IMG/VR virus record: IMGVR_UViG_2541047295_000015
Span: 1-64,000 of that record
Origin: a virus
Taxonomy: Duplodnaviria > Caudoviricetes
Reading direction: 5' to 3' (one strand)
DNA: 64,000 nucleotides
Under the pieces are notes generated by a model that ran no database searches, was not told where the DNA came from, and saw only the letters and a program-made list of their open reading frames with translations. Within the stretch, counting starts at the first letter, position 1. Each line of letters starts with the position of its first letter. The position numbers were made by a program, and so were the translations under genes. Shown piece by piece: positions 1 to 1,703 of the stretch.

Positions 1-572
1 AATAATCAGATAGGTTTAGATTTAGGAATTAAAGAATTTTGTATCTCAAGTTGTGGACAATTTATAGAAAATCCTAAGTATCTTCAGAAGTCGTTAAATA
101 AACTTGCTAAATTACAAAGAGAACTATCGAGAAAAACAATTGGTAGTTTAAATAGAAATAAGCAAGTTAAAAGTTGCAAGACTTCAAGAACATATAGCTA
201 ATCAAAGGAAGGATTTTCTACAAAAACTATCTACAAATTAATACGAGAGAATGATATTTTTGCATAGAAGATTTACAAGTAAAGAATATGACTAGAAATC
301 GTAAATTATCTCTTTCTATTTCTGATGTGTCATGGTCAGAATTTGTTCGTCAATTAGAATACAAGGCTAATTGGTATGGTAGACAAATTGTAAAGATAGG
401 TAAATTCTTTGCAAGTTCACAAATATGCAATAAATGTGGGTACAAAAAAGAGGAAATGAAGAATTTAAATATAAGAGAATGGATTTGTCCTTGTTGTAAT
501 GTAACTCACGATAGAGATATAAATGCAAGTATAAATATACTAAAAGAAGGATTAAGACTAATAACAGTTTAA
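1..572 (+). pseudogene. tnpB: TnpB RNA-guided endonuclease, C-terminal part, frameshifted as given
   Basis: Frame 1 reads IGLDLGIKEF (RuvC-I). After shifts: [21 protein letters not shown] (RuvC-II), SSQICNKCG...CPCC zinc ribbon and [10 protein letters not shown] (RuvC-III). Several 1-nt losses between ~160 and ~265. Confidence 0.85.
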
Positions 573-698
573 AATAGATAACGTATGTAAGAACCGTAGG
601 AACTACGGGGATAGCCTGTGGAGAATTGGTAAGACATATTTTAGTATGCGAAATTCTATGAAGCAGGAACTCTGTGACTTTAGTCATGGGAGGTTCAG
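1..698 (+). mobile_element. 3' part of an IS200/IS605-family TnpB element, probably an IStron (group I intron-IS chimera), inserted in the terminase large subunit gene
   Basis: TnpB coding remnants, then a right-end hairpin (ctctgtgactttagtcatgggag, ~670-692) ending ...ggTTCAG at 698. Base 699 onward reads KERADEMKREMD in frame with the terminase ORF. The 5' end lies outside the window. Confidence 0.8.
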
Positions 699-1703
699 AA
701 GGAAAGAGCAGATGAAATGAAAAGAGAAATGGATGCTGTTTCTTGGATTATGGAGATGGAATCACTTTTCTTTGGAGAAAATGAAGATGCAATATTTAAA
801 TCATCTTATGTAAATCCATGTAGGACATTAAAAAATCCATTTTATCCTCCAACAGATTTGGAAGTGTTATCTGCTAAAAACGGAAAAATAAAGTGTAATC
901 TACAAAAAAGAAAAGGTGAACTAAGGATAATTTCTGCTGACATTGCTATCGCAGAAGGAGACAATAATGATAACTCAGTATATACATGCTGGAGATTATT
1001 GCCCGAGAAAGATTATTATGAAAGAATGGTTGTTCATATAGAATCTCATAATGGTATGAAGCCAGATAAACAAGCAATAAGATTAAAGCAATTGTTCTTT
1101 GATTTTGAAGCAGATTTCTTAGTTATAGACACTCAAGGAGTAGGGCAAAGTGTTTTATCTGATTTACTTAGAGTTAATTATGATGATGCTAGAAATAAAG
1201 AATATAATGCATTTTCTCACACTAATACAAATCATTTACATAATAATTTTATTACGAAAGAGAATTATCCAGTTATATTTGAGATTAAGGCATATGGACA
1301 AATAAATCATGATTGTATAATTGGTTTACTGGATGTATTTCTAAAAAATAGAATAAAATTACCTATAAATGATGTAGAAGCAAATGATATGTTAAGTAGT
1401 ACATCTGGGTATGCAAAGAAAAATTATACAGACCAAGCAAGAATGATATTACCATATAAACAAACTACACTACTTGTAAACGAATTAATTAACTTAGAAA
1501 CTGTTAAAAATGATGGTCAAAAGTGGCTTAAAGTTAAAGAAAAAGGGAAAGCACGAAAAGACAGATATTCTTCTTTAGCATATGGAAATTATCTAGCAAA
1601 TTTACTGGATATAGAATTAAAAAAGAGAAATAGTAAAGAAAATGGACAAATAATTTCATTCTGGTCAGGAGGTGGAAACCATAATAGAACTCAAAGGAGA
1701 TAA
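699..1703 (+). CDS. Terminase large subunit, 3' exon (nuclease domain)
   Basis: IISADIA..DNS and KDRYSSLAY RNase H-like terminase motifs; lies directly before the portal; frame is open from 699 (ORF track starts at 717). Confidence 0.8.
   Translation, partial: KERADEMKREMDAVSWIMEMESLFFGENEDAIFKSSYVNPCRTLKNPFYPPTDLEVLSAKNGKIKCNLQKRKGELRIISADIAIAEGDNNDNSVYTCWRLLPEKDYYERMVVHIESHNGMKPDKQAIRLKQLFFDFEADFLVIDTQGVGQSVLSDLLRVNYDDARNKEYNAFSHTNTNHLHNNFITKENYPVIFEIKAYGQINHDCIIGLLDVFLKNRIKLPINDVEANDMLSSTSGYAKKNYTDQARMILPYKQTTLLVNELINLETVKNDGQKWLKVKEKGKARKDRYSSLAYGNYLANLLDIELKKRNSKENGQIISFWSGGGNHNRTQRR

Follow-up and report, generated by a model that had tools for sequence, protein, structure and literature searches.

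Results

An IStron in the terminase gene of a Clostridioides phage-plasmid

We found a ~1.9-kb IStron of the CdISt1 type (group A, IS200/IS605) inserted in the terminase large subunit gene (terL) of a Clostridioides phage-plasmid. Its right 698 nt form positions 1-698 of the window, by which we mean the whole 64,000-nucleotide stretch of DNA analyzed here, the start of contig C28 in a source assembly of 4.76 Mb and 114 contigs. The element boundaries, an intron core, both terminase exons and their colinearity with uninterrupted terminases, an orthologous insertion in a second phage, and empty alleles that do or do not match the guide are all observed. Taken as a whole, we consider it very likely that a CdISt1-type IStron resides in terL of a ~120-kb phage-plasmid, is spliced out of the message, and yields an omega-RNA that guides TnpB, from its own or another copy.

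The junction at 698/699 reads ...GTCATGGGAGGTTCAG|AAGGAAAGAGCAGATG: the element ends with ...GGTTCAG at 698 and terminase codons run from 699. The IStron 3' terminus TCAG (695-698) is conserved in 40 copies across the genus and closes the 126-nt non-coding tail (...GTGACTTTAGTCATGGGAGGTTCAG) behind tnpB. Copies of the first 698 nt occur at ~27 places in the source assembly, all of them contig ends, and these right ends all break off at base 698, with mutually unrelated flanks beyond. Since so many copies share one end base in front of unrelated flanks, the boundary is genuine and not a chance match. At the opposite side, the left ends (~25 in the source genome) all begin TTGAT|TAAAAAATAGC, with TTGAT|TAAAAAATAGCTACGC in the 21 matched by the intron model; TTGAT precedes every left end examined (~21), and terminase exon 1 also ends ...CTTGAT. 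Empty alleles show that insertion took place directly 3' of TTGAT, without target duplication. Copies in seven further Clostridioides species share 94-98% identity with the right end. The IStron is thus a high-copy mobile element, and its copies have broken the assembly. With ~25-27 IStron copies, and at least a handful of short remnants of right ends (among them C33:1343-1508, C12:42937-42997, and C34:16070-16133), the source genome owes a large share of its 114 contig breaks to this element.

The last bases of the IStron (window 684-698, TCATGGGAGGTTCAG) resemble the end of exon 1 (C28:118402-118418, TCATGGGATACTTGAT). Owing to this likeness, BLAST extended the empty-allele match of G002:C2 21 nt into the element; we considered that match as an IStron remnant and rejected it on this ground. 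The likeness itself is probably due to chance, being absent at other insertion sites.

Group I intron core and closure of the contig

Upstream of the element's right end, the sequence-only reading had called for a group I core and a 5' terminase exon with a TTGAT-like end. Both were found by wrapping round the contig, the exon encoding the ATPase part and ending in TTGAT itself. The Rfam group I intron model RF00028 (gathering score, 50 bits) matches C28:118438-118807 with 55.7 bits over its full length (model positions 1-253). This match starts 20 nt inside the IStron left end, which spans C28:118419-118866 (448 nt), where the contig stops inside the element. The exon, at C28:117648-118418, carries a PF03237 match, and the intron opens with TAA directly after its TTGAT. 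Because exon 1 and the intron core lie at the far end of C28, the contig closes into a circle across the IStron. As read from the sequence, C28 is circular across one IStron, with ~118.9 kb assembled and roughly 0.75 kb of unassembled interior, ~120 kb in total, and the replicon is a LIBA6276/phiCD211-like Clostridioides phage-plasmid. The assembly lacks element positions 454-1200, where the N-terminal half of TnpB and any tnpA would lie.

Across the source genome, 22 places exceed the gathering score of RF00028. All but one are IStron left ends at ~60 nt from the end of a contig, and these 21 form a second contig-end family. In window 1-1200, no Rfam family reached threshold, the only matches being the sub-threshold RAGATH-18 and Ref70. 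A gathering-score scan of the whole 64 kb was also blank, yet 28000-30000 searched alone gives RF00028, as does the search of the whole genome, so that the blank scan reflects a filter effect and no true absence. The match is a second group I intron, at 28817-29082, with 90.2 bits; the claim that tail assembly, too, depends on splicing is borne out in part, by this intron. It has a weaker RF00028 neighbor (48.8 bits at 28533-28782, within window 28533-29547), and part of its core, 29043-29116, is 80% identical to the IStron intron core.

The two exons encode a complete terminase

Exon 2 (699-1703, + strand) comprises 334 codons and a stop and encodes the nuclease domain. Its match to PF17289 (Terminase_6C) is sub-threshold, with 21.2 bits against a cut-off of 22.6, and it is colinear with residues 258-591 of the LIBA6276 terminase and with the 'terminase large subunit' WP_021402200.1. 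Exon 1 comprises 257 codons and encodes the ATPase domain; its last base, 118418, completes the final codon of ...GGG ATA CTT GAT. It matches PF03237 (Terminase_6N) above the cut-off, with 23.8 bits at C28:117855-118178, and PHROG terminase families with E values of 1e-9 to 4e-12. Joined, the two exons read ...SLHHGILD|KERADEMKREMD..., residue for residue the uninterrupted 591-aa terminase of LIBA6276. Precise removal of the element restores the frame seen in the uninterrupted terminases of LIBA6276, ES-S-0107-01, and others, and the insertion site is the hinge of the ATPase and nuclease domains. In-frame resumption of the terminase at 699, after ...TTCAG at 698, had been noticed from the window alone, and the join with exon 1 confirms it. 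The predicted spliced junction unites the exon 1 end ...GGGATACTTGAT with the exon 2 start AAGGAAAGAGCAG (...CTTGAT|AAGGAA...).

Neither terL exon contains stops or frameshifts, and pN/pS, calculated versus four alleles, is 0.03-0.06. The exon 2 sequences of the source phage and Clostridioides phage ES-S-0173-01 differ by 18 synonymous and 2 non-synonymous changes. These values are supportive, though not conclusive, of an interrupted terL that is still in use: the low pN/pS could partly come from recombination with uninterrupted alleles and not from selection on the split gene.

A terminase made as two polypeptides, an ATPase and a nuclease half, the second started without splicing from the ATG at 717, would also place the break between the two domains. 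It could draw on AAGGA at 699-703 as a candidate ribosome-binding site ahead of that ATG, and on PHROG families close in size to each half. The candidate site and ATG are ordinary coding sequence, however, present in uninterrupted alleles as well; the exon ends show no adaptation to separate expression, and the exons are separated by a complete IStron whose ribozyme core is matched by RF00028. We regard two separate polypeptides as extremely improbable and favor a spliced terminase.

In the PHROG searches with window 699-1703 and L014:711-1481, the best match of each half was a separate family of 'unknown function', namely phrog_15503 (245 positions) and phrog_26582 (363 positions). The existence of these half-sized families suggests that in other phages of the PHROG database this terminase has been called as two ORFs, perhaps through introns at a similar point. 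We considered phiCD211, with a split terminase, as the source of these families and rejected it, its terminase not being split.

An orthologous insertion in phage ES-S-0173-01

ES-S-0173-01 (closed genome CP067352.1) carries the same insertion at the same base. Its element measures 1,902 bp and has an open tnpB of 371 codons and no tnpA; the encoded TnpB matches that of ISDra2 (PDB 8h1j and 8exa) end to end, with an E value of 1e-107. Among the plasmids and IMG/VR contigs searched, we found no IStron-occupied terminase allele other than that of ES-S-0173-01.

The two phages differ by 2.2% on average over 32.7 kb of aligned sequence, and this bears on whether the insertion has simply inactivated terL, leaving the replicon to persist as a plasmid or defective prophage. 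An unspliced message would indeed end at the first TAA of the intron. Against inactivation, both exons are intact under a pN/pS of 0.03-0.06, the same insertion is kept in a second phage diverged to this extent, and self-splicing of CdISt1 is experimentally known (PMC4227781). A dead terL is very unlikely in our judgment.

No difference between the two phages is found in the IStron flanks over 3,219 nt on the upstream and 395 nt on the downstream side. In the alignment as a whole, the longest identity run, of 3,564 nt, adjoins the element, and so does the fifth longest, of 697 nt; away from it, the longest measures 1,383 nt. Such an identity tract fits a recent joint transfer of element and flanks, either through homing and co-conversion or through ordinary recombination.

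The reading frame of tnpB

The window starts within tnpB, of which the 3' part (1-572, + strand) covers codons ~181-371 of 371, with matches to PF01385 (1-201, E = 3e-10) and PF07282 (288-572, E = 2e-24). As assembled, the gene is read in frames 1, 2, 1, and 3: alignment to the intact ES-S-0173-01 copy located deletions of 2, 1, and 1 nt near 162, 236, and 260, respectively. Three RuvC motifs can be recognized on the + strand: GLDLGIK (RuvC-I, Asp) near 13-33, CIEDL (RuvC-II, Glu) near 261-275, and HDRD (RuvC-III, Asp) near 505-516. A zinc finger, CxxC...CxxC, precedes the last of them, near 427-500. The D, E, and D motifs of RuvC are thus all present, but in frames 1 and 3 as assembled, with the frameshifts between them.

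These frame changes raise the question of whether the IStron has decayed into a passive element, one that still splices and leaves the phage viable, with a tnpB pseudogene and a guide of relevance only when TnpB is supplied in trans. Such decay would explain the three changes of frame in tnpB across window 1-572. The same indels are common to 12 of the 13 long right ends of the source genome, no tnpA is visible in the element, and none of the CdiIStrons of C. difficile 630 has a full-length TnpA (10.1101/2023.11.20.567912). The distribution of the differences speaks against it. Two parts of the terminase copy are distinguishable from the other copies, left-end positions 1-345 and the final 301 nt of the right end. 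Both show 100% identity with the ES-S-0173-01 copy, which has an intact tnpB, and both lie within the block of 3.2-kb and 0.4-kb flanks without a single difference. Window 1-~397, in turn, is almost base-for-base equal to the chromosomal copies, and the frameshifted stretch is exactly this part, as a collapsed repeat predicts. In other species of the genus, moreover, most IStron copies have intact tnpB frames of 371-374 aa. A decayed IStron is therefore possible but somewhat unlikely.

Compared with ES-S-0173-01, ~400 nt with 17 differences and three indels stand amid an otherwise identical tract of ~5 kb. From the alignments, the clustered differences are most simply explained by a repeat collapsed at the contig ends or by a gene-converted interior, and window 1-~397 is probably a collapsed repeat consensus. 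The tnpB frameshifts and other features of the terminal stretch may then not belong to the terminase locus, and the IStron copy in the terminase probably has an intact tnpB. Short-read assemblies break at IStrons, and a consensus repeat at contig ends can falsely suggest a pseudogene. C28:118764-118866 and window 1-397 both equal the consensus of the chromosomal IStron copies, with an abrupt switch from copy-specific sequence; all 13 long right ends start at one common base, and all 21 left ends stop at one common base.

The source genome also contains a complete, intron-less IS605 at G000:C22:8046-9501, with a Y1 TnpA (154.8 bits) followed directly by an intact TnpB of 370 aa, which shares 54% identity with that of the IStron. 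This IS605 is a candidate source of transposase in trans for the IStrons that lack tnpA.

The predicted omega-RNA, its guide, and natural targets

The transposon right end at 540-698 (+ strand), which overlaps the 3' end of tnpB, is the predicted omega-RNA scaffold; within it, a subterminal hairpin lies at ~670-692. This right end is near-invariant in 40 copies across the genus, and divergence sets in exactly after 698. Its fold has a z score of -2.6 relative to shuffles. Positions 615-669 match RAGATH-18 below threshold (30.3 bits versus 44.9, E = 0.002), and RAGATH-18 RNAs are TnpB guide RNAs (PMC11061315). Covariation was sought in the right-end RNA, for which the 40 copies are too alike to be informative. 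In the CdiIStron, the omega-RNA lies in the ~117 nt after tnpB and the guide directly after the 3' splice site (10.1101/2023.11.20.567912). With the guide position taken from the TnpB/IStron architecture in the literature, the predicted 16-nt guide template is AAGGAAAGAGCAGATG at 699-714 (+ strand), the first 16 nt of exon 2. The sequence-only reading had proposed terminase sequence as the guide, and the predicted guide indeed falls on exon 2 and has a perfect natural match, in ES-S-0107-01.

We compared the empty site in 13 relatives. ES-S-0107-01 reads TTGAT + AAGGAAAGAGCAGATG..., with the TAM present, a perfect guide match, and 37 identical nucleotides. It was considered as a recent product of precise excision and rejected as such, as it differs at -69, -97, +38, and +77 around the junction. 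The allele in pCD1602_4 reads TTGAT + AAAGAAAGAGCTGATG, with the TAM and two guide mismatches. The remaining alleles, in LIBA6276, pZ1322PCD0028-2, G002:C2, and eight IMG/VR contigs, read TTAGAT + AAAGAAAG..., with one guide mismatch and no TAM. Thus 11 of the 13 empty alleles have TTAGAT in place of the TTGAT TAM, a synonymous variant dominant in C. difficile relatives, and, lacking the TAM, they could not be TnpB targets. TTA is the commonest Leu codon in such AT-rich genomes, and we therefore make no claim of selection for TAM loss. The predicted guide accordingly has a genuine target in nature, but TnpB would spare most of the relatives known. The idea that the nuclease homes against related phages would apply to a minority of them, such as ES-S-0107-01 with its matching target, and would not extend to the 11 alleles without the TAM.

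Discussion

Proposed mechanism

Splicing and RNA-guided homing are inferred here from published work on the CdISt1 family, in which self-splicing was shown experimentally (PMC4227781, citing Braun 2000 and Hasselmayer 2004) and TTGAT serves as target and TAM, with a TCAG terminus (PMC4227781; 10.1101/2023.11.20.567912). The whole element would splice itself from the terL pre-mRNA, with the 5' site after TTGAU and the 3' site after G698. As read by eye, the exon UUGAU could pair with GUCAG of the intron (element positions 55-59), placing the usual U-G pair at the 5' splice site. Splicing would yield full-length TerL, whereas the unspliced message would stop at the TAA with which the intron opens. 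The right end would also be transcribed or processed into an omega-RNA with a guide of ~16 nt, AAGGAAAGAGCAGAUG, from window 699-714. TnpB could be supplied by the element's own copy, if this is intact as in ES-S-0173-01, or by another copy in trans. Together, TnpB and omega-RNA would cut any terminase allele that reads TTGAT followed by the guide sequence, and repair from an IStron-bearing copy would restore or spread the element. The occupied allele would be protected because its match is preceded by GTTCAG and not by TTGAT.

A further step, in which the ~5.5-kb tract shared with ES-S-0173-01 would be a co-conversion tract left by RNA-guided homing between co-resident phage-plasmids, and TTAGAT a protective TAM-loss variant, is speculative and in our view unlikely. 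If true, it would provide evidence from natural populations for a TnpB-driven gene drive between phages. The locus is of value as a natural test case, in which one phage family offers an allelic series: occupied in two phages, empty with a perfect TAM and guide match, empty with the TAM and two mismatches, and TAM-less in many. This series could be used to test TnpB-driven inheritance of IStrons between phages, and also whether the conflict documented between splicing and maturation of the guide RNA is tolerable in an essential packaging gene.

Comparison with known systems

We found no mention in the literature of a CdISt1 insertion in a terminase gene. The element class and its mechanism are already published, and the terminase case is a well-documented new instance and not a new kind of system. 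The nearest relatives are the CdISt1 elements, or CdiIStrons, of the same genus and element class (Braun 2000; Hasselmayer 2004; PMC4227781; Zedaveinyte et al., 10.1101/2023.11.20.567912). The terminase element shares with them the TTGAT target and TAM, the TCAG terminus, the 5' group I core, the 3' tnpB and predicted omega-RNA, the apparent lack of tnpA, the length of ~1.9 kb, and the many copies per genome. Of these, the core, TTGAT, TCAG, and an IS200/IS605 ORF B are the defining features of group A IStrons (Tourasse 2014, PMC4227781; 10.1101/2023.11.20.567912), and all four are found here. It differs in its location, an essential structural gene of an extrachromosomal phage-plasmid instead of a chromosomal gene.

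The ISDra2 element (IS8301) of Deinococcus radiodurans is similar in its TnpB, which aligns over the full length with that of the ES-S-0173-01 copy (E = 1e-107), in its TTGAT TAM, and in drawing its guide from the DNA just outside the right end. In contrast, ISDra2 has a tnpA and no intron, and it inactivates the genes it enters. CbISt3 and CbISt4 of the Clostridium botulinum phages c-st and D-1873 are likewise IStrons on large clostridial phage-plasmids (PMC4227781), but they belong to group B, are of IS607 type, and have GG-ending targets and a CGG terminus (PMC4227781). Finally, group I introns with homing endonucleases, found in structural and DNA-metabolism genes of phages, offer the same combination of a self-splicing intron in an essential phage gene and a nuclease directed against intron-less alleles in co-infecting relatives, whereas here the nuclease would be the RNA-guided TnpB and the element could also transpose to any TTGAT.
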